From: Alphaproteobacteria bacterium
GTDB taxonomy: Bacteria > Pseudomonadota > Alphaproteobacteria > Caedimonadales > UBA1908
Length of the DNA stretch: 64,000 nucleotides
Reading direction: 5' to 3'
Assembly: GCA_013911655.1 (NCBI GenBank)
Contig: JACESU010000001.1
Location: 256,063-320,062, forward strand
The position numbers were made by a program, and so were the translations under genes. The stretch's first letter is position 1; each line of letters opens with the position of its first letter. The notes beneath the pieces are model-generated. The model was given only the letters and a program-made list of their open reading frames with translations. It ran no database searches and was not told the origin of the DNA. Below are positions 5,173 through 14,689 of the stretch, in pieces.

Positions 5173-5604
5173 GTAGGTCATTCCTTCAATTAATTTACGC
5201 CTGTGACCCTTTATCCATTAAAGAGTCAACTGTGAGTGTAGCAGTAGTTTTTTCCAAAAGATACATCTTAAGAAACAAACTCATAACTCTAAATTAATGC
5301 GCAAAGTTAAGGACCTATCTCAGATTAACCTCGACCCACCGCAGTGATGCACGAGGAAAAACCAGCCCTAGGTTAACGCATAACGCAAACCAAGAATTAT
5401 CTAAACTCGACGACATTATGAACTAACTTGTATAGAAGGCAAGAAAAAAAGACGAAAGAAAGAATTTTTTTTTAAGTTTATTTTTTTGACTCAAGAAAAA
5501 TGGGGTTTTTCTTTACAAAAGTGGCAAAAGGGCGTTTGAAAAAATCTTTAAAGAAATCCTCGACACAGGCCTATTTCTTTGTTAAAAGGGTGACACTCTC
5601 TTGG

Positions 5605-5680
<76 letters not shown>

Positions 5681-5805
5681 TTTTCCCTAAGATTCTATCT
5701 AAAAAGCCGACCTATTTTTCTGATAAAAGGATTTTTCTACACTTTGATTTGAGGGAAATACCTGTGCGTCGTATGATGATTTTGAGAAAATAAGGGGAGG
5801 CTCCT

Positions 5806-7905: not shown

Positions 7906-8256
7906 GGAGAGTTCCTTTGTTAAGGTTATGATCTCAAGTATGGTCGCATAATTGTTAATATTAAGTAAATTTTTAACAAACGGTGCGATGTTTTTCTTAA
8001 AAAAAAGACGTTATTTCAAAAGGGTGCCAAGAGGTGGTGGCAACGCTTATCCCCTAAGAGCAAAATACGACACAAAGGTGTTTTGATTTGTCGGGAGGGG
8101 TGACGTAAAACTGCAACGGATAAACCAAGTAAATTAAAAGGGTTGTGAAATATTTTTTAAAAGAGATGAGATAAAATTAAGAAACGTTGAGAAAGAATTG
8201 ACATTTTGTATAATTTTTCTAAAATTTTCCTCATACAACATAACGGGAGGTCGTAT

Positions 8257-10236
8257 ATGAAAAAAATTCGTGAAACATCTGTAGGTTATCTTACCCTTGT
8301 GGGTGTGATGGGAGCCTTTTTATCGGGGTGTGATCATCCGCAATCCACATCATCATCTAAGGTGGCCCAAGGTACAGAGAAGCCGGCGGCGCGCACAGTT
8401 GAGCAGATGCTGGCTGAAAAAGGTCATATGAATGAAGATCTTAAACAGGGTGTAGAGCTTCTTTTAGCTGGTAACTACCAAGAGGCTTCTAAGTCTTTTA
8501 ACCTTGCCCTTTTCAAAGATCAAACCAACGGGTGGATTCACTATCTTAATGGTTTAAGCTATCAATTGCATGCAAAACAAGGGGATATTACGCAGTACGA
8601 CCTGGCCCAAGCCGCCTTTGAGCAAGCGTTAAAATATGATCCCAACAACATGATGGCGTCCTTGCAGCTTGCGCGTGTGTTTTCAGCAAAAAAAGATTAT
8701 GCCAAAGCTCAAGAAGAGTTGGCCAATGTCTTGATCATGGAGCCTAACAACAAAGACGCTGCTTACGAGCTTGCTTATGTTTCCTATCAAAGGGGTGACG
8801 TCAAGTCTGCGAGCATGGCGATTAATAGGGCCGCCACCCTTGCCCCTCAAAATCCAGAAGTCAGGCGTGCAGAAGCCATGATTTTAGCAGCGTCCGGAAA
8901 AGGGGAAAAAGCCCTCGAGCAGCTTGCACAGTACCAAAATGGTCACAAAGCAGATGCAGATATTGCGCGCACTCAAAAGCGTGTTGAGGAATGGAACACC
9001 CTTTATAAAAACGGGCTTGTTCTTGCCCAAGCAGAAGCAGCGCCAAATCCCAGTGCGGATATTGATGCAGCAGCCGCCGGCGCAGAAGCAGCGCCCGATG
9101 CACCCACGGCCAGTACTGAAGGCCAAGGCGCACCTGATGGGAGTGCTGCTGGAGCCGCGCCTCATCACGAAGCCCCAGCTGCTAAGGTTGCACCAGCCAA
9201 AGCGCCTCAAAGCGATATGATCTTTTTGGACGCAGTGGTGCTGCGTGTGAGTGATGAAGGTCAAACCACAAAGGGTAACAACATCTTAGACGGTCTGAAT
9301 GTGTCCTTGTCACCTGGCAGCTATGGTAAGGGCTGGTCGAAGTCGAATAACACAGGCGGCGGTTCCTCCCAGAGCTTTGGGTTCCTGCAAGGAACAGCTG
9401 CGGCCGGTGCCCTTACAGGGTCGGGGATTAATCCTATTGCCGATGGTCTTTCGACAACGCGCGTCTTTACACAAGGTGTTAGCTTTTCTACGCTGAACTA
9501 CAGCTTGAAAATTGCCAATGCCGAGCGCAACTATGTTGAGGTCGTTGGACGTCCGTCGCTTGTTGCGTCTGTGGGTAAACCCGCAACATTTTTCTCGGGT
9601 CGTGAGCTGACCTTGGGCTTGACCGGTCAAAACGGTGGTACTATCCAAAAGGTGCCTGTGGGAACAACCCTTAAGGTCACCCCTTCAGCCCTTGAAGGTA
9701 ATATGGTGACCCTTGATATCGCTCTTTACGGAAGTTTGATCACCGACAACACCTTCTTGTCCAACGATCCGACACAGCGCTGGACAGATGTGGGACTCAG
9801 TAAGGTCACGACCAACATCCAAGTGGCCCTGGGGGAGACAATTATGCTTGGTGGTATCAGTGAGCGTATTGATATTCAAGACAAATCAGGGTTCCCAGTC
9901 TTGCAAGACATCCCCGGCGTTCAGCTCTTGTTCTCGCGGGAAACCACAGACAGTCAGCGTAAATCTGTGATGTACCTGATAACACCGCGCTCTTATTTGG
10001 ATAACAAGAAAAAAACTGCCACCATCACGATTAGTGACAGGGGCGAGAATATGACAGAACTTGAAAGGCGTAACCAAAACTGGTTCGATCCTGCGAATAA
10101 CACGGTTGTGATCTTGAAAAGCCTTTCACCTCTGTATAGAGAGTTTAGGCATGCTGATCTTCCACCCATGAAGTGGGACATGCCAAATGTTGTAGGTATG
10201 CAAGTAGAGCAGGCTCTAAGCTTCATTTACTATTAA
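8257..10236 (+). CDS. lipoprotein with N-terminal TPR domain, Ala/Pro linker and C-terminal secretin domain
   Basis: GGGAGG SD before the ATG at 8257. Lipobox FLSGC. TPR-like repeats span roughly aa 60-240. The C-terminal secretin signature is GETIMLGGISERIDIQDKSGFPVLQDIPGVQLLFSRETTDSQRKSVMYLITPR. Confidence 0.75.
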   Translation: MKKIRETSVGYLTLVGVMGAFLSGCDHPQSTSSSKVAQGTEKPAARTVEQMLAEKGHMNEDLKQGVELLLAGNYQEASKSFNLALFKDQTNGWIHYLNGLSYQLHAKQGDITQYDLAQAAFEQALKYDPNNMMASLQLARVFSAKKDYAKAQEELANVLIMEPNNKDAAYELAYVSYQRGDVKSASMAINRAATLAPQNPEVRRAEAMILAASGKGEKALEQLAQYQNGHKADADIARTQKRVEEWNTLYKNGLVLAQAEAAPNPSADIDAAAAGAEAAPDAPTASTEGQGAPDGSAAGAAPHHEAPAAKVAPAKAPQSDMIFLDAVVLRVSDEGQTTKGNNILDGLNVSLSPGSYGKGWSKSNNTGGGSSQSFGFLQGTAAAGALTGSGINPIADGLSTTRVFTQGVSFSTLNYSLKIANAERNYVEVVGRPSLVASVGKPATFFSGRELTLGLTGQNGGTIQKVPVGTTLKVTPSALEGNMVTLDIALYGSLITDNTFLSNDPTQRWTDVGLSKVTTNIQVALGETIMLGGISERIDIQDKSGFPVLQDIPGVQLLFSRETTDSQRKSVMYLITPRSYLDNKKKTATITISDRGENMTELERRNQNWFDPANNTVVILKSLSPLYREFRHADLPPMKWDMPNVVGMQVEQALSFIYY

Positions 10237-10255: not shown

Positions 10256-10284
10256 AAAAAAAGGCGCGAAAGCGCCTTTTTTTA
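10256..10284 (+). terminator. rho-independent terminator after the secretin gene
   Basis: aaggcgc-gaa-agcgcctt stem-loop followed by TTTTTT. Confidence 0.8.
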
Positions 10285-10495: not shown

Positions 10496-12559
10496 ATGTC
10501 TTATAGAACTTCTTTTGTTAAAAATCTATTTCTTATGTCTTCCACATGTCTTGCGGCTACAACCTATGCCAGCGAGGTGATCGAAGGAGAAAATTTAGAA
10601 CGCTCTCCCAAAAACACAAGCACGCTTATTTCACACTTTGAAAGAGAGTCGACATCTCCTACAACGGGCAAAAGGCGCTCTCCTGCATCTTTAAGCCCTC
10701 AAATGCCCCCTGTTGCGGGAGAAAGTTTTATAGGTAGAGAGCAAACTGACTCTTTTAAATCGCCGCCTCGTATTCGCCTTTCAGAAAGGTCGTGTGTAGG
10801 CAGTAAGGCAAAAGGAGTTGAGCATTTATTGTCGCCGCGTCTCTTGCCAACCTCTTCAAGAAAAGAACCACGACCAGCGTTTGTTAAAACATCCTCTTTG
10901 CGCACGGTTGCTATGTCACCTGCTGAAAGTGTCTCAAAGAACGCTACACAAGTCTCCTCTCATAAAGATATGCGCTCTCTTAAAAGCACGCTTCCAAAAC
11001 AATCATATGACTTGCATCAGATGAAGGACGGCGCAAGACGACATGCAAGTCTGGAAGCCGTTGTTGGTGCAATCCAAGTTTTGCAAACACCCGAGCGACA
11101 ACAGCGCACGGCAACTACTTTAAAAGAAACTTATTCCTTGTCGACCTTGCCGACGCTGCTTGGGCATGAACCATTGCCAATCGATGATGCTTCAGGCGAT
11201 GAATTAGCGCCTGATATGGGACCAACAACGTCTTTTGACATGCATATCAAGTGGGATGAGGTGTCACTGTTAAGTGAGCAAAAATCGGGCCATATTAAGC
11301 ACCTTGATTTGTCAGCAATTGGCCTTTTTTGCGGGGAATATTCTGAAATTGTTGAGTTGAGCCAACATGTCAAAGAGGGAGGGAATAACGGGATTACGCC
11401 GTCTGCAATTTTATCAGCTCAAGAAGACACAAGTGACGTATCGTTTGTACAAATCGAGATCCCGTCGGTGCCACGTGTGCCTCGTATTCCACTAGATCAG
11501 TTGAGTAAGTTACATAAAACGCCTGTCTCTGTTTTACCTGTCGCGTCTGGCAGCAGGTCATCCCCAAGTTCTGAAAGAGTGTCTCCTATGTCACTGGTTA
11601 AGAGTTTATCGGCTGAACACGTGAGTTTTCTTGTGGCCATGGAAATATTTGATCGTCAAAAAAGCGTATTTTTGGCGGATCTCGCCCAACAGAAAAGCAA
11701 CAATGTTATTCTAAGGTCTCTTTCTGGAAGGCCTACTGATAGGGTTTATAGAGATTTTATAGAGTTGAATTTTAAAGATTATTTTTCCGAGGCTGAGCGA
11801 GGCAAAAGTACTTCTGTTGCGAAGGATTCTGGCGTAATTCTGACGACCCTTTTGTATATTGCTGAAGATTTTGAACAGGCCGTTACGTGGTATGGCACCA
11901 TGGAGAAGGGACGACTTTCTGACACCGGTCTTTGTGAGACAGCTAAAATGCTGGGAAATGTTTGCCGGTTTTTCGACACATACAGATTAATGTTGGTTCA
12001 TCTTTATACGTCTGTTTGGAGTGTGGTGCCAAAAAAACTCTTATCTGAACCAGATTTTACAGTAGAGCGGATGCAAAAAGGACAAGCGACATACGTAACG
12101 GGCCTTCGAAGGCTTTTGAGCGTTGTCCAAGATTTTCAAGAGTGTCTTCATTTAAGACATGAACAAATGGAGGCTGCTCAAGGGGGGATCAAAGTCTTGT
12201 CAGATAGCAGCGATAGTACTTCGGGAAGTACAACGCCCAAGTGCAGTTCTGATGCAAAACTTTCAAAGTTTAAAAAAAGTAATGCAACGCCTCGCTCTCA
12301 AGAAACTCAAACCGTCATGGGTGAGCAAAGCGATGACACGCACAGTATAAAAGAAAAGAGAGGAAGCAAAGAAAAACGCAGGAGTGCTGAAAAGCTATCT
12401 AGGCAAAATAGTAAAACAGCGATGACCTCTTCGTCACACTCGCTTCAAACGCAAGAAACATCTGTTGATATACCACGAGAACCTATAAGTCCTGCTGATC
12501 TGTCTCCCAGAAAAAAGAAGGGATTTGGCCACAAATTCAAACAAGTCATCGGCCTTTAA
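10496..12559 (+). CDS. secreted Ser/Pro/Lys-rich protein with conserved helical core, tandem paralog 1 (687 aa)
   Basis: Signal-like N-terminus. Long low-complexity flanks surround a core (about aa 365-555: EHVSFLVAMEIFDRQK...LLYIAEDFEQAV...LYTSVWSV) that is shared with the next gene. Confidence 0.6.
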   Translation: MSYRTSFVKNLFLMSSTCLAATTYASEVIEGENLERSPKNTSTLISHFERESTSPTTGKRRSPASLSPQMPPVAGESFIGREQTDSFKSPPRIRLSERSCVGSKAKGVEHLLSPRLLPTSSRKEPRPAFVKTSSLRTVAMSPAESVSKNATQVSSHKDMRSLKSTLPKQSYDLHQMKDGARRHASLEAVVGAIQVLQTPERQQRTATTLKETYSLSTLPTLLGHEPLPIDDASGDELAPDMGPTTSFDMHIKWDEVSLLSEQKSGHIKHLDLSAIGLFCGEYSEIVELSQHVKEGGNNGITPSAILSAQEDTSDVSFVQIEIPSVPRVPRIPLDQLSKLHKTPVSVLPVASGSRSSPSSERVSPMSLVKSLSAEHVSFLVAMEIFDRQKSVFLADLAQQKSNNVILRSLSGRPTDRVYRDFIELNFKDYFSEAERGKSTSVAKDSGVILTTLLYIAEDFEQAVTWYGTMEKGRLSDTGLCETAKMLGNVCRFFDTYRLMLVHLYTSVWSVVPKKLLSEPDFTVERMQKGQATYVTGLRRLLSVVQDFQECLHLRHEQMEAAQGGIKVLSDSSDSTSGSTTPKCSSDAKLSKFKKSNATPRSQETQTVMGEQSDDTHSIKEKRGSKEKRRSAEKLSRQNSKTAMTSSSHSLQTQETSVDIPREPISPADLSPRKKKGFGHKFKQVIGL

Positions 12560-12877
12560 CTAAAAATGGCAGCCCTTCTTTTATTTATAAAGAAGGAAAA
12601 TATAAGAAAATTAGTATGGGCGTTGAAAAGAGAATAAAAATGAAGTGTGGAAAGGGGGCTATTTCGTGACATTATGTTAGGAAAACTCCTTTCTCTTCAA
12701 AAGAAACTGGTTTAGTCTTTCTTGTAATATACTGATTTAAGTTCAAGAAAACGTCTGTTTATCAACGAGGGCGCGTTAATAAGTTAAGTTAAATTATTTA
12801 CCAATAGTCAATAATTTCTGTAATAGTTTCTTAACAGATTACTAAAATAATAAAAACGTGCACAACCAAAACAGGAT

Positions 12878-14689
12878 ATGGACATGTCACATAGATCATA
12901 CCTTTTTTATACTTTGGTTTTTATCTCATCATCCATAGGGATCGACATCGTCCATGGAACTGATGAAGGGGACAGGCTCATGAGCCCATTACATACTACT
13001 CAGCACCGCAGATTACCCCACGTCATTGAAGCAAGAGATAAATCCCCCCTCAGATCTAAATCACCCCAAACAAGTCCACGTGATAATGCAGAAACTGACA
13101 ATCGACGCTTTCCTGTTATTGTGCCATCACGTGTGGGAAAAGTTCACGTAGTGGTAGGCAAACTTGAAGATGAAAGCTCTTATGAAATGCCGCTTGTTGA
13201 CACAAAGAATAGTGCGCTTGTTTTTCCCAAAAAAAGCGATACCCCTGAAAATGATCTCCAAAATTCTGCCTCCAGCTCGCTCAAAGAAGTGGGAAGTTTT
13301 GACAATATTGATTTTGATAATCTGACAACGGCCCTATGCATGCTTAAAGAAAACGAACAAAAACCTGTTTGCGGAGAAGACTCAAATAGAGCGCTTGCGA
13401 TGCCAACAATTATCCACAACCAGCCGATCACGTCGCAAACAGAGCGTCGTAAATCGCCGCGTCCAAGATCCCTTGTGAGACCCTTAAAGCCCGAAGACAT
13501 CTCTTCTTTCCAAGAGGGAGGGTTACCGTGTCGCACCCTTAAACCCCTTGATTTGGGCCCTATCGCCAAAGCTCATGTATGCAATCAAAGACTTACAGAG
13601 CTTAGTAAACGAGTTCGAGGGAGTGCCAAGTCAGAAGAAGGAGCTAAAGAAGGGGCGTTAGGGATTCCGTCCTCAAGAAAATCACCGACGGCGCGTGTTC
13701 CTCATCTCCCGGTGGAACAAATTATGTCGCATAATGCGTCTGGATCCGGGACTCCTTCTCCTCTCTCAACCCAAAGAGGACTGTCTCTTGAGCATGTGAG
13801 TATTCTTACAGCCCTAGACACCTTTGATAAAAGAAAAGTGACTTTTCTTTGGGACTTAGAGCAACAAAAAGAGCGCAATATTATTTTGAAAGACCGTACA
13901 GATCGTCCAACAGAGAAGGTTTATGGTGAGTTCAAAAGCTTAGATTTCAAAAAATACTATCAAGAAGTGGGGCAAGGAAAAAAGGATGCGATTACCCATG
14001 ATGCTCCTATTATTTTGCGGACCCTTTTATACATTGCGGATGATTTTGAAGAAGCTCTTAAGCATTATACTGACCTTGATAAAGGAAGATTTTCCGATAA
14101 TATCCTCATTGAGACATCAAAAACCTTAGAGCACTTACACAAATTTTTTGAGGGCTACAGCATGATGTTGGCGCTTTTGCATACGTCTGTTTGGAGCGTG
14201 ACATCAAGACATCACCTTGCTTCTCATGGTCTCCTCCCAGAAAAACTTGCCTCTGCCCAGTTGACCTATGTGGTCGGCATGAGCTCTGTTGCGACGTTGA
14301 TGCAGGATTTTAAAGAATCTATCGAAGCAAGGCGCAGCCAGTTGCGCGCTCAAGAAAGTGAAGGATCACCCGAAAGTAAAGAAAGCCACTCGTCAGGAAG
14401 CGCCACATCGTATGTTGCGCCTCAAAGGAAAAAAGCCTCACCAAGTGCAAAAGGGATGTCTTCCTTTTCAAGGACGGACAGTAGCGATGTGCTACCTTCT
14501 AAAAAAGCGCGCCGCAAAAGTGAAACCCGACATGGCCGGTCGTCCCATGGGGAAGAAGCTTCTCTTGCTTCTATGACAAATCCCTATAAGGCGCGGACCC
14601 CTAGTTTTGATCAAGAGCATAAAACGGGAGAGGGGGCCCAAAAAAAGCCAGGCATTGGCTCAAAACTAATAGACGCCTTTTTTCAATAA
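12878..14689 (+). CDS. secreted Ser/Pro/Lys-rich protein with conserved helical core, tandem paralog 2 (603 aa)
   Basis: Hydrophobic N-terminus. The core (about aa 300-485: EHVSILTALDTFDKRK...LLYIADDFEEAL...LHTSVWSV) is colinear with the paralog 1 core. Confidence 0.6.
   Translation: MDMSHRSYLFYTLVFISSSIGIDIVHGTDEGDRLMSPLHTTQHRRLPHVIEARDKSPLRSKSPQTSPRDNAETDNRRFPVIVPSRVGKVHVVVGKLEDESSYEMPLVDTKNSALVFPKKSDTPENDLQNSASSSLKEVGSFDNIDFDNLTTALCMLKENEQKPVCGEDSNRALAMPTIIHNQPITSQTERRKSPRPRSLVRPLKPEDISSFQEGGLPCRTLKPLDLGPIAKAHVCNQRLTELSKRVRGSAKSEEGAKEGALGIPSSRKSPTARVPHLPVEQIMSHNASGSGTPSPLSTQRGLSLEHVSILTALDTFDKRKVTFLWDLEQQKERNIILKDRTDRPTEKVYGEFKSLDFKKYYQEVGQGKKDAITHDAPIILRTLLYIADDFEEALKHYTDLDKGRFSDNILIETSKTLEHLHKFFEGYSMMLALLHTSVWSVTSRHHLASHGLLPEKLASAQLTYVVGMSSVATLMQDFKESIEARRSQLRAQESEGSPESKESHSSGSATSYVAPQRKKASPSAKGMSSFSRTDSSDVLPSKKARRKSETRHGRSSHGEEASLASMTNPYKARTPSFDQEHKTGEGAQKKPGIGSKLIDAFFQ

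Follow-up and report, generated by a model that had tools for sequence, protein, structure and literature searches.

To our knowledge, every secretin studied forms the outer-membrane end of an ATP-driven machine, namely a type II or type III secretion system (T2SS, T3SS), a type IV or Tad pilus, or the export apparatus of filamentous phages, and uses N-terminal ring domains to dock there. The liposecretins HxcQ (Pseudomonas aeruginosa), BfpB and TcpC retain N-domains and belong to complete T2SS or type IVb pilus operons, and we know of no tetratricopeptide repeat (TPR) domain on any of the three. HxcQ is self-piloted by its lipid anchor, according to work cited in PMC12475490. For the secretin RcpA, the last four residues bind the TPR groove of TadD and are essential for interaction with TadD, which is itself required for secretin assembly (PMC10499894). 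The N0 domain is the contact for GspC, and a mitochondrial GspD that lacks N0–N3 oligomerises and inserts into liposome membranes, where pore formation was also tested (PMC8134430). Moreover, PilQ was co-purified with a pentapeptide-repeat protein that fits its lower ring (PMC12475490). Here we analyse a gene that joins a TPR domain to a secretin domain in one lipoprotein, the TPR-secretin, and that lies in a 64,000-nt stretch of an alphaproteobacterial genome of the order Caedimonadales (GenBank assembly GCA_013911655.1, contig JACESU010000001.1, forward strand, positions 256,063 to 320,062); this whole stretch is called the window.

The TPR-secretin (P0001, 659 aa) is an exported lipoprotein in which a TPR superhelix of ~200 residues is connected by a tether of ~70 residues to a secretin fold (C-terminal 260 residues). 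We consider it a secretin of new architecture that is probably autonomous. The reading that we favour, at slightly better than even chances, is a motor-independent, N-domain-less TPR-liposecretin pore, in which the lipid anchor and a TPR domain in cis take the place of a pilotin.

An earlier reading made from the letters of the window (the sequence-only reading) had proposed an open reading frame (ORF) for a protein with a canonical FLSGC lipobox, TPR repeats of ~180 aa, an Ala/Pro-rich linker and a secretin C-domain, and all of these parts were recovered (Table 1). The Cys at the lipobox position is invariant in 15/15 close homologues, and among 150 family representatives at least 115 have a lipobox. 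Pfam matches to TPR_19 (2.5e-13), TPR_16, TPR_2 and other TPR families together cover aa 60-235, the predicted helices of this domain have pLDDT values of 93-98 in an AlphaFold model built on 76 homologues (mean pLDDT 75.7), and Foldseek aligned the protein's N-terminal portion with consensus TPR proteins and with MamA. The linker, where conservation is lowest in the protein, contains the segment modelled as disordered (aa 261-315). Directly after it, at aa 321, the first barrel strand DMIFLDAVVLRV begins; the secretin core further contains the GFPVLQDIPGVQLLFS motif, the conserved motif GFPxLxDIPxxQxLFS and, at aa 360-410, a loop rich in Gly and Ser that was modelled with low confidence. Membership of the secretin superfamily is shown by PF00263, which scored far above its gathering threshold (8e-27, 94.3 bits against 27.5) and was covered almost completely (aa 422-578, profile positions 3-166 of 169), and by the beta-barrel fold, whose strands between aa 321 and 579 were modelled at pLDDT 82-95. 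Profile searches of the PDB matched the core with GspD, PulD, ExeD, RcpA, PilQ, InvG-type secretins and pIV, and Foldseek matched the barrel with T2SS, T3SS, Tad, type IV pilus and phage secretins (GspD, InvG, RcpA, PilQ, pIV) at E values of 1e-12 to 1e-14. A fifth part, which had not been separated before, is a C-terminal domain with five predicted helices (aa 580-658), the last of them at pLDDT 86-92. Among 15 homologues W609, Y627, R628, R631, D634, W640 and F656 are invariant or nearly so, and 138 of 150 family representatives end in Y or F.

Table 1. Features of the TPR-secretin gene and its product; positions are those of the window.
Feature	Position	Strand	Basis and remarks
Coding sequence of TPR-secretin lipoprotein P0001	8257..10236	+	ORF call and domain searches; start ATG 8257, stop TAA 10234-10236
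Two overlapping sigma-70-like promoters	8187..8225	+	TTGAGA-16-TATAAT and TTGACA-16-TAAAAT; each 11/12 matches
Ribosome-binding site GGGAGG	8246..8251	+	5 nt upstream of ATG 8257; read from sequence
Lipoprotein signal peptide, lipobox F-L-S-G-C	8257..8331	+	Cys25 predicted acylation site; Asp at +2
TPR domain, aa 48-251	8398..9009	+	13 helices, six-to-seven repeats; Pfam TPR families, AlphaFold
Disordered Ala/Pro-rich linker, aa 252-320	9010..9216	+	pLDDT <50, conservation 0.11
Secretin core, aa 321-579	9217..9993	+	DMIFLDAVVLRV to LITPR; PF00263, TIGR02517, PDB profiles, Foldseek
Helical C-terminal domain, aa 580-659	9994..10233	+	W609-F-D-P, Y627-R-E-F-R-x-x-D, terminal F-I-Y-Y
Intrinsic terminator GGCGC-GAAA-GCGCC + T7	10263..10283	+	read directly from sequence

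The absence of N0 and N1, which had been suggested, extends to all of N0–N3 by Pfam search, by two structure models and by the composition of the spacer. No Secretin_N or STN match was obtained in the Pfam search, and neither of the two predicted structures contains an alpha/beta N-domain. N0/N1 domains hidden in the linker are ruled out, as the linker is disordered in both models, has very low conservation and varies in length and composition between homologues: the stretch between TPR domain and barrel is low-complexity (A/S/P/G/D/E-rich) in 222 of 222 homologues, with a median of 68 aa and a range of 32-162 aa. Models of complete secretins gave the same picture. The NCBIfam GspD model TIGR02517 reached 73 bits against a cut-off of 351 and aligned only with aa 322-578, the PilQ model TIGR02515 reached 67.5 bits against 284 and aligned only with aa 409-578, with no AMIN, N0 or N1 domain, and PilQ, SctC, MshL and HofQ models all matched the C-terminal barrel only. 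The protein is not a T2SS GspD, given the low score, the lack of N0-N3 and a monocistronic gene rather than one set among gspC-M, and the nearest GspE-like gene sits on a different contig; nor is it a Tad RcpA/CpaC, as it lies outside a tad/cpa locus and has no RcpA-type N-domain. It carries a lipobox on the secretin polypeptide itself and in this respect belongs with the HxcQ-type liposecretins.

The ORF is real, and start codon, ribosome-binding site, promoter and terminator were all located. A longer version starting at TTG 8206 is spurious and falls within the promoter region. The strong terminator proposed to follow the gene was also confirmed; a simple terminator scan gave no entry for it, and it is visible in the sequence itself, where an A-run ahead of the hairpin could allow action in both directions. 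Because the gene has its own promoter, ribosome-binding site and terminator, it is predicted to be a transcription unit of its own and thus monocistronic.

We found no published description of a TPR-secretin fusion in a literature search that left most subscription journals outside its reach, and to that extent the family appears to be previously undescribed. A word-based search returned 14 homologues and suggested that the TPR-secretin is confined to Holosporales, which was overturned by a profile search and a genome scan. An exhaustive profile search against 1.84 billion representatives returned 551 proteins at E<=1e-30. The best 150 of these all had E<1e-91; in most, the alignment extends from the lipobox region through the final residue, while the others are fragments or align in two or three stretches. 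As a lower bound, the family comprises at least 150 clusters at 50% identity. The scan of one genome per species gave 259 loci in Alpha-, Beta-, Gamma- and Zetaproteobacteria, Desulfuromonadales, Desulfovibrionaceae, Bdellovibrionota and Elusimicrobia, mainly in free-living bacteria. Family members share the order of lipobox, TPR domain, low-complexity linker, N-domain-less barrel and helical C-terminal domain, the last with the motifs W-F-x-P and Y-R-E-F-R-x-G-D and the end F-[LI]-[YWF]-[YF], and the protein of the window conforms to this order. In public databases they are named 'tetratricopeptide repeat protein' or 'Flp pilus assembly protein TadD', names that conceal the secretin domain. 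The description of this gene as an orphan therefore stands in part: it is solitary here and in every relative from its order that we examined, but it is not rare, being a member of a very large family.

Independence from motors was assessed by searching 20 family-bearing genomes for PF00437 (T2SSE, the GspE/PilB/CpaF ATPases), with positive controls that matched. Three of the 20 have no PF00437 ATPase, and four more have only one of the Tad type. One PF00437-free genome is a complete 3.8-Mb Terasakiella chromosome; in Terasakiella sp. LRMN1 (L104, NZ_CP182348.1:1322977-1340788) the TPR-secretin is solitary and no PF00437 match occurs anywhere in the complete genome. Because of these ATPase-free genomes and the missing N0 domain, we take the family to be independent of the motors of type II secretion, type IV pili and Tad pili. 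The idea of a stand-alone secretin is thus favoured for the family, whereas the genome of the window itself holds both Tad and MSHA-like machines, and motor independence there would follow from the homologues.

The genes beside the TPR-secretin were clustered for the best 80 of the 259 loci. A TAXI-type binding protein (PF16868; 18/80 loci) is in most cases encoded directly upstream, and a pentapeptide-repeat protein with an export signal (PF00805; 27/80) in most cases directly downstream; giant signal-peptide proteins of ~2,200 aa occur at 12 of the 80 loci, adjacent in most, and Tectonin-domain proteins of ~1,100 aa immediately downstream at four. Signalling genes for cyclic-nucleotide (cNMP)-binding, GGDEF and cyclase proteins and genes for DASS and MFS transporters are frequently near family loci. 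Large exported proteins account for 9.6% of adjacent genes and for 1.3% of other flank genes (Fisher p=2e-6), a comparison that ignores phylogeny and uses a crude home-made signal-peptide rule. No pilus genes stand beside the TPR-secretin in the 80 loci.

In a maximum-likelihood tree, the order of the window is joined with its sister group, which consists of uncultured alphaproteobacteria, in a clade of 31 members with 100% support. None of these 31 is accompanied by TAXI or pentapeptide partners, which cluster instead within one subclade in the tree's other half; neither gene adjoins the TPR-secretin of the window. Two arrangements elsewhere in the family may be recorded here. At three betaproteobacterial loci (L075:10706-12583, L077:4257-6092, L071:10766-11755) the TAXI/TPR-secretin/pentapeptide module is followed by cyclic-nucleotide genes, which encode a fusion of a cNMP-binding domain with a DASS/CitMHS-type transporter, an adenylate/guanylate cyclase of dCache-HAMP type and a GGDEF protein that binds cNMP. 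These neighbours are a hint that solute transport regulates the module or is coupled to it. At two loci of Rhodospirillales type (L082:1777-5700, L097:6046-9869) a tandem pair of TPR-secretins precedes one pentapeptide gene, and we read the pairs as lineage-specific duplications of the pore.

A different kind of cargo was also considered. Cyclic di-GMP and cNMP signalling genes near some family loci would suit an outer-membrane channel that exports or anchors a non-protein polymer such as exopolysaccharide or slime, following the logic of BcsC, PgaA and AlgK-AlgE, with which the protein shares the layout of N-terminal TPR and C-terminal outer-membrane barrel and, weakly, its TPR matches. Secretins are also reported to be necessary for slime export in cyanobacteria and myxobacteria, where a pentapeptide-repeat protein accompanies PilQ (PMC12475490). 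However, no glycosyltransferase, synthase or Wza/Wzc-type gene is adjacent in the window or found among the recurrent neighbour clusters of the 80 loci, and the TPR matches are generic (27-37 bits against cut-offs of 367-858; for the NCBIfam models, BcsC 36.9 against 858 and PgaA 27.6 against 367). The protein is not an exporter of the BcsC/PgaA type, as its C-terminus is a secretin and it has no synthase neighbours. The host genome, moreover, is a reduced one of endosymbiont type (1.7 Mb), and we rate a polymer channel as very unlikely.

The assembly that holds the window (1.73 Mb, 99.5% complete) encodes three secretins. As had been claimed, no pilus, T2SS or Tad genes flank the TPR-secretin in the window. 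A genome-wide search for tad, pil and gsp genes, which the sequence-only reading had proposed, returned a complete Tad locus with a CpaC of its own and an MSHA-like ATPase locus that lacks an adjacent secretin, an MshL-like secretin being encoded elsewhere. The first secretin is the 467-aa CpaC of the Tad locus (contig C2, 180-189 kb), which we read as cpaA, cpaB, cpaC, cpaD, cpaE, cpaF, tadB and tadC from gene order and size, only CpaA, CpaC and CpaF being confirmed by family searches, and which also encodes a TPR lipoprotein of 368 aa. The second is an MshL-like liposecretin of 560 aa (C3:146236-147918, +; TIGR02519, 204 bits) with weak, sub-threshold N-terminal matches to STN and Secretin_N_2. 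An ATPase of GspE/PilB type that carries an MshEN domain and a platform protein of GspF type are encoded at 252-255 kb of contig C2, without an adjacent secretin. The sequence-only reading had named a locus elsewhere that lacks a secretin of its own as grounds for refutation; this objection is half borne out, and it loses its force because the MshL-like liposecretin is the obvious partner of this machine. Since CpaC serves the Tad locus and the MshL-like protein is the natural partner of the MSHA-like machine, the TPR-secretin is the third, surplus secretin of the genome. A role as a component of the Tad system was rejected, as that system has CpaC and a TPR lipoprotein, and the TPR-secretin gene persists where Tad is absent.

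The MSHA-like parts belong to one dispersed MSHA/T2SS-like type IV filament machine spread over three contigs. The ATPase/platform locus (C2:250449-255396, -) includes three unannotated downstream ORFs of 386, 186 and 130 aa. Two pilin-like proteins of unusual length, 235 and 268 aa, are encoded at C3:119030-120519 (+), and a second, short prepilin peptidase at C1:931036-931485 (+). Because its parts are scattered in this way, an 'orphan' position means little in this genome, and the TPR-secretin could be a relocated or second secretin of this machine, with the TPR domain replacing N0 as the link to the platform. The ATPase-platform locus (C2:250-255 kb), which lacks an adjacent secretin, and the presence of the MSHA-like ATPase and the TPR-secretin in 22/23 genomes of the order each would agree with this. 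The separate MshL-type liposecretin, however, fits the type of the ATPase and is equally conserved (22/23), and both the lack of N0, the contact for GspC (PMC8134430), and the occurrence of family members in PF00437-free genomes argue against such a partnership. Moreover, in free-living relatives the gene stands beside TAXI and pentapeptide genes and never, in the 80 loci, beside pilus genes. A relocated filament secretin is thus unlikely in our estimate.

The order was sampled with 23 species genomes of Caedimonas/Paracaedimonas relatives from four families, one of these genomes being identical to Candidatus Caedibacter (Paracaedimonas) acanthamoebae CP008936. The TPR-secretin is present at full length in 22 of the 23 and in all four families (32-91% identity), so that the fusion itself is conserved in relatives. 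The GspE-like (MSHA-like) ATPase and the MshL-like secretin, the two parts of the filament machine that were searched for across the order, are likewise each found in 22/23, and co-occurrence within the order does not distinguish which secretin serves this ATPase. Four genomes that lack both Tad ATPase and CpaC (G017, G018, G019, G022) keep the TPR-secretin. A TAXI binding protein above cut-off occurs in none of the 23, and pentapeptide-repeat proteins occur in 13 of them and in no member of one family. The only pentapeptide-repeat protein of the genome that holds the window (192 aa, with a signal peptide; C3:53867-54445, -) is encoded ~2 kb from flgI and may be an unlinked remnant of the partner seen beside TPR-secretins in free-living bacteria. 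The window thus contributes the minimal case, in which a whole order of reduced, host-associated genomes retains only a bare, monocistronic pore gene.

That the protein is no transport channel at all, but has a structural or tethering part in the envelope or is a relic in decay, is hardly credible to us. The partners of free-living relatives were indeed lost in this order, and an Asp +2 lipobox with a 70-aa tether would permit an inner-membrane-anchored TPR domain joined to an outer-membrane ring. The gene is, however, intact in nearly all of the 22 genomes, with invariant secretin motifs at 32-91% identity and no frameshifts; single in-frame stops occur in two draft assemblies. In the window it has a strong promoter and a ribosome-binding site.

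Unlike the gene, its neighbourhood is not conserved past the genus. Neighbours vary by family, one having coaD-gyrA-ssb and another fliR-fliQ, and no pilus gene adjoins the TPR-secretin in any relative examined from the order. The two secreted paralogues that had been proposed downstream are present in the window at 10496-12559 and 12878-14689 (+). Their cores are 40% identical over 236 aa and carry disordered arms rich in Ser, Pro and Lys. Directly downstream of the TPR-secretin, an exported protein that evolves fast and has a high content of Ser, Pro and Lys, the counterpart of this pair, is encoded in 4/4 genomes of the genus that were examined, and only within the genus. In G013 and G014 a single 810-aa protein of similar composition occupies the same position, and because its similarity is only marginal (E=0.009), the locus at 10496-14689 must evolve very fast. 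The gene order across the genus is secretin, exported protein, fliR, fliQ, rplU, rpmA, obgE; in the window, fliR-fliQ is an isolated pair of flagellar type (TIGR01400, TIGR01402; 14683-15737, -) away from other flagellar genes. On the other side of the TPR-secretin gene, a tRNA-Lys(CTT) gene lies at 5605-5680 (+), and an overlapping ORF of 97 aa at 5500-5793 is spurious.

The sequence-only reading had proposed that the TPR-secretin is a conduit for proteins with Sec signals; these would include the F-box/leucine-rich repeat (LRR) family of the window and the two disordered paralogues, and the TPR domain would be the cargo receptor. Such a role agrees with the data: the secretin is surplus and without a motor partner, an exported protein follows it in the genus, and large exported proteins are enriched beside the gene across the family. 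However, the paralogue genes are separated from it by the terminator and have a promoter region of their own, the synteny stops at the genus, and delivery to the host cytosol would additionally require the crossing of host membranes. As the family is found mainly in free-living bacteria without such effectors, effector export is not its ancestral function, and we consider a conduit of this kind unlikely.

The proposal of a covalent pilotin-secretin fusion holds in so far as a lipoprotein TPR domain is covalently joined to an N-domain-less secretin; the word pilotin holds by analogy and not by homology. A lipoprotein signal and a TPR fold of ~200 aa are both present, as in pilotins. The models of PilF/PilW (TIGR02521, 29.6 bits against a cut-off of 154) and of Tgl (NF033762, 26.2 bits against 225) align over the whole TPR part far below their cut-offs, the TadD-like protein of the same genome matches the TPR domain at E=0.019, and no pilotin occurs among the best 60 of 79 PDB matches to this domain. 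Descent from a known pilotin (PilF, PilW, Tgl or TadD) was rejected, as the similarity is that of TPR proteins in general. Hence 'pilotin-like' refers to a possible role of the TPR domain and not to its ancestry.

According to the reading that we favour, the TPR-secretin would assemble, by analogy with other secretins, as a gated outer-membrane pore of about 12-15 subunits, and without N0 it would not dock onto an inner-membrane platform of GspC/PilP type. The lipid anchor would target the protein by itself, as in HxcQ, and anchor and cis TPR domain most likely stand in for a separate pilotin in targeting and assembly. The nearly invariant C-terminal F-x-Y-Y tail may dock in a TPR groove, either of its own subunit or of a neighbour, as the RcpA C-terminus does in TadD; alternatively or additionally, partners or cargo may dock on the TPR domain in the periplasm. 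In free-living relatives the partners would be the TAXI binding protein, the exported pentapeptide-repeat protein or the giant exported proteins, and the pentapeptide ring of PilQ (PMC12475490) suggests, by analogy, what role the pentapeptide partner could have. In the host-associated order these partners would have gone and the gene for the pore, a core gene in nearly all genomes, would have stayed behind by itself, with Sec-exported proteins as candidate cargo.

Several points weigh against this reading. The codons at window 8329-8334 place Asp after the lipid-modified Cys; the residue is Glu within the same genus, and the +2 position is variable in the family, elsewhere mostly A, Q or S, also E and others. 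In Escherichia coli, Asp at +2 keeps a lipoprotein in the inner membrane; if this rule applied here, the protein would be retained there, and with such an anchor the 70-residue tether might bridge the periplasm. The TPR domain has no specific similarity to known pilotins, and a crude covariation analysis (mutual information with average product correction, effective number of sequences about 160) placed 2 pairs between TPR and C-terminal domain in the top 200 against 21.5 expected. This is a weak test, as the tail is nearly invariant, and most of the top pairs reflect signatures of subfamilies within the barrel. For the large exported neighbours, the enrichment has the crude basis given above. 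Furthermore, as 22/23 genomes of the order have the MSHA-like ATPase, the case for independence from it comes from distant members of the family. For every member, the formation of a pore, its stoichiometry, its place in the membrane and its cargo are inferred.

A more speculative and rather improbable version makes the TPR-secretin the sole dedicated component of a new, motor-less two-step secretion route, in which the self-piloting pore would use its tethered TPR domain to capture large Sec-exported proteins and feed them to the gate, and through which F-box/LRR and disordered effectors would leave the cell in this lineage. If true, it would account for a bare pore kept in 22/23 reduced genomes after the loss of TAXI and pentapeptide partners. 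Should the protein be a working pore, secretins would be able to act autonomously, and some Sec-exported proteins would have a candidate exit from the periplasm in bacteria without an apparent route for them, among these endosymbionts with eukaryote-like effectors. The family may mark an unrecognised path across the bacterial outer membrane, and if autonomy and cargo were shown it would be a new kind of secretion route. The TPR-secretin is, in addition, a compact single-gene system for studies of secretin targeting and assembly.

Compared with known systems, the closest barrel is that of GspD of the T2SS, which gives the best sequence and fold matches (PDB 5WQ7, 6HCG, 6I1X), whereas N0-N3 are absent from the TPR-secretin, no gsp genes are nearby and its C-terminal domain is unlike the S-domain. 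The mitochondrial GspD of the mitochondrial T2SS resembles it in lacking N0-N3, and yet oligomerises and inserts into membranes, but that protein is eukaryotic, co-occurs with GspE, GspF and GspG, and is without the TPR domain, lipobox and C-terminal domain of the TPR-secretin (PMC8134430). With the liposecretins HxcQ, BfpB and TcpC it shares the lipobox on the secretin itself, and BfpB is among its Foldseek fold matches. In BcsC, PgaA and AlgK-AlgE an N-terminal periplasmic TPR scaffold is likewise combined with an outer-membrane barrel, but there the barrel is a monomeric porin instead of a multimeric secretin and is encoded in synthase operons. In type IVa pili, a TPR lipoprotein of ~250 aa (PilF, PilW or Tgl) assists PilQ, whereas the TPR-secretin has no AMIN, N0 or N1 domains and no pilMNOP context. 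The pentapeptide gene beside TPR-secretins at 27 of 80 family loci is paralleled by the pentapeptide partner of PilQ (PMC12475490); that PilQ is, however, a canonical type IVa pilus secretin, and in the order of the window the pentapeptide gene is unlinked and often absent. A further parallel is RcpA-TadD of the P. aeruginosa Tad pilus (PDB 8ODN, PMC10499894), a secretin core with few periplasmic domains plus a TPR lipoprotein, whose groove is bound by the secretin's extreme C-terminus (Foldseek TM 0.49 for the TPR-secretin over RcpA). The TPR sequence of the TPR-secretin is not specifically TadD-like, and the TPR-secretin gene does not lie in a tad locus, its own genome having a separate CpaC and TPR lipoprotein. 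Finally, RcpA-TadD consists of two proteins, whereas the TPR-secretin unites TPR domain and secretin in one polypeptide without the RcpA-type N-domain.

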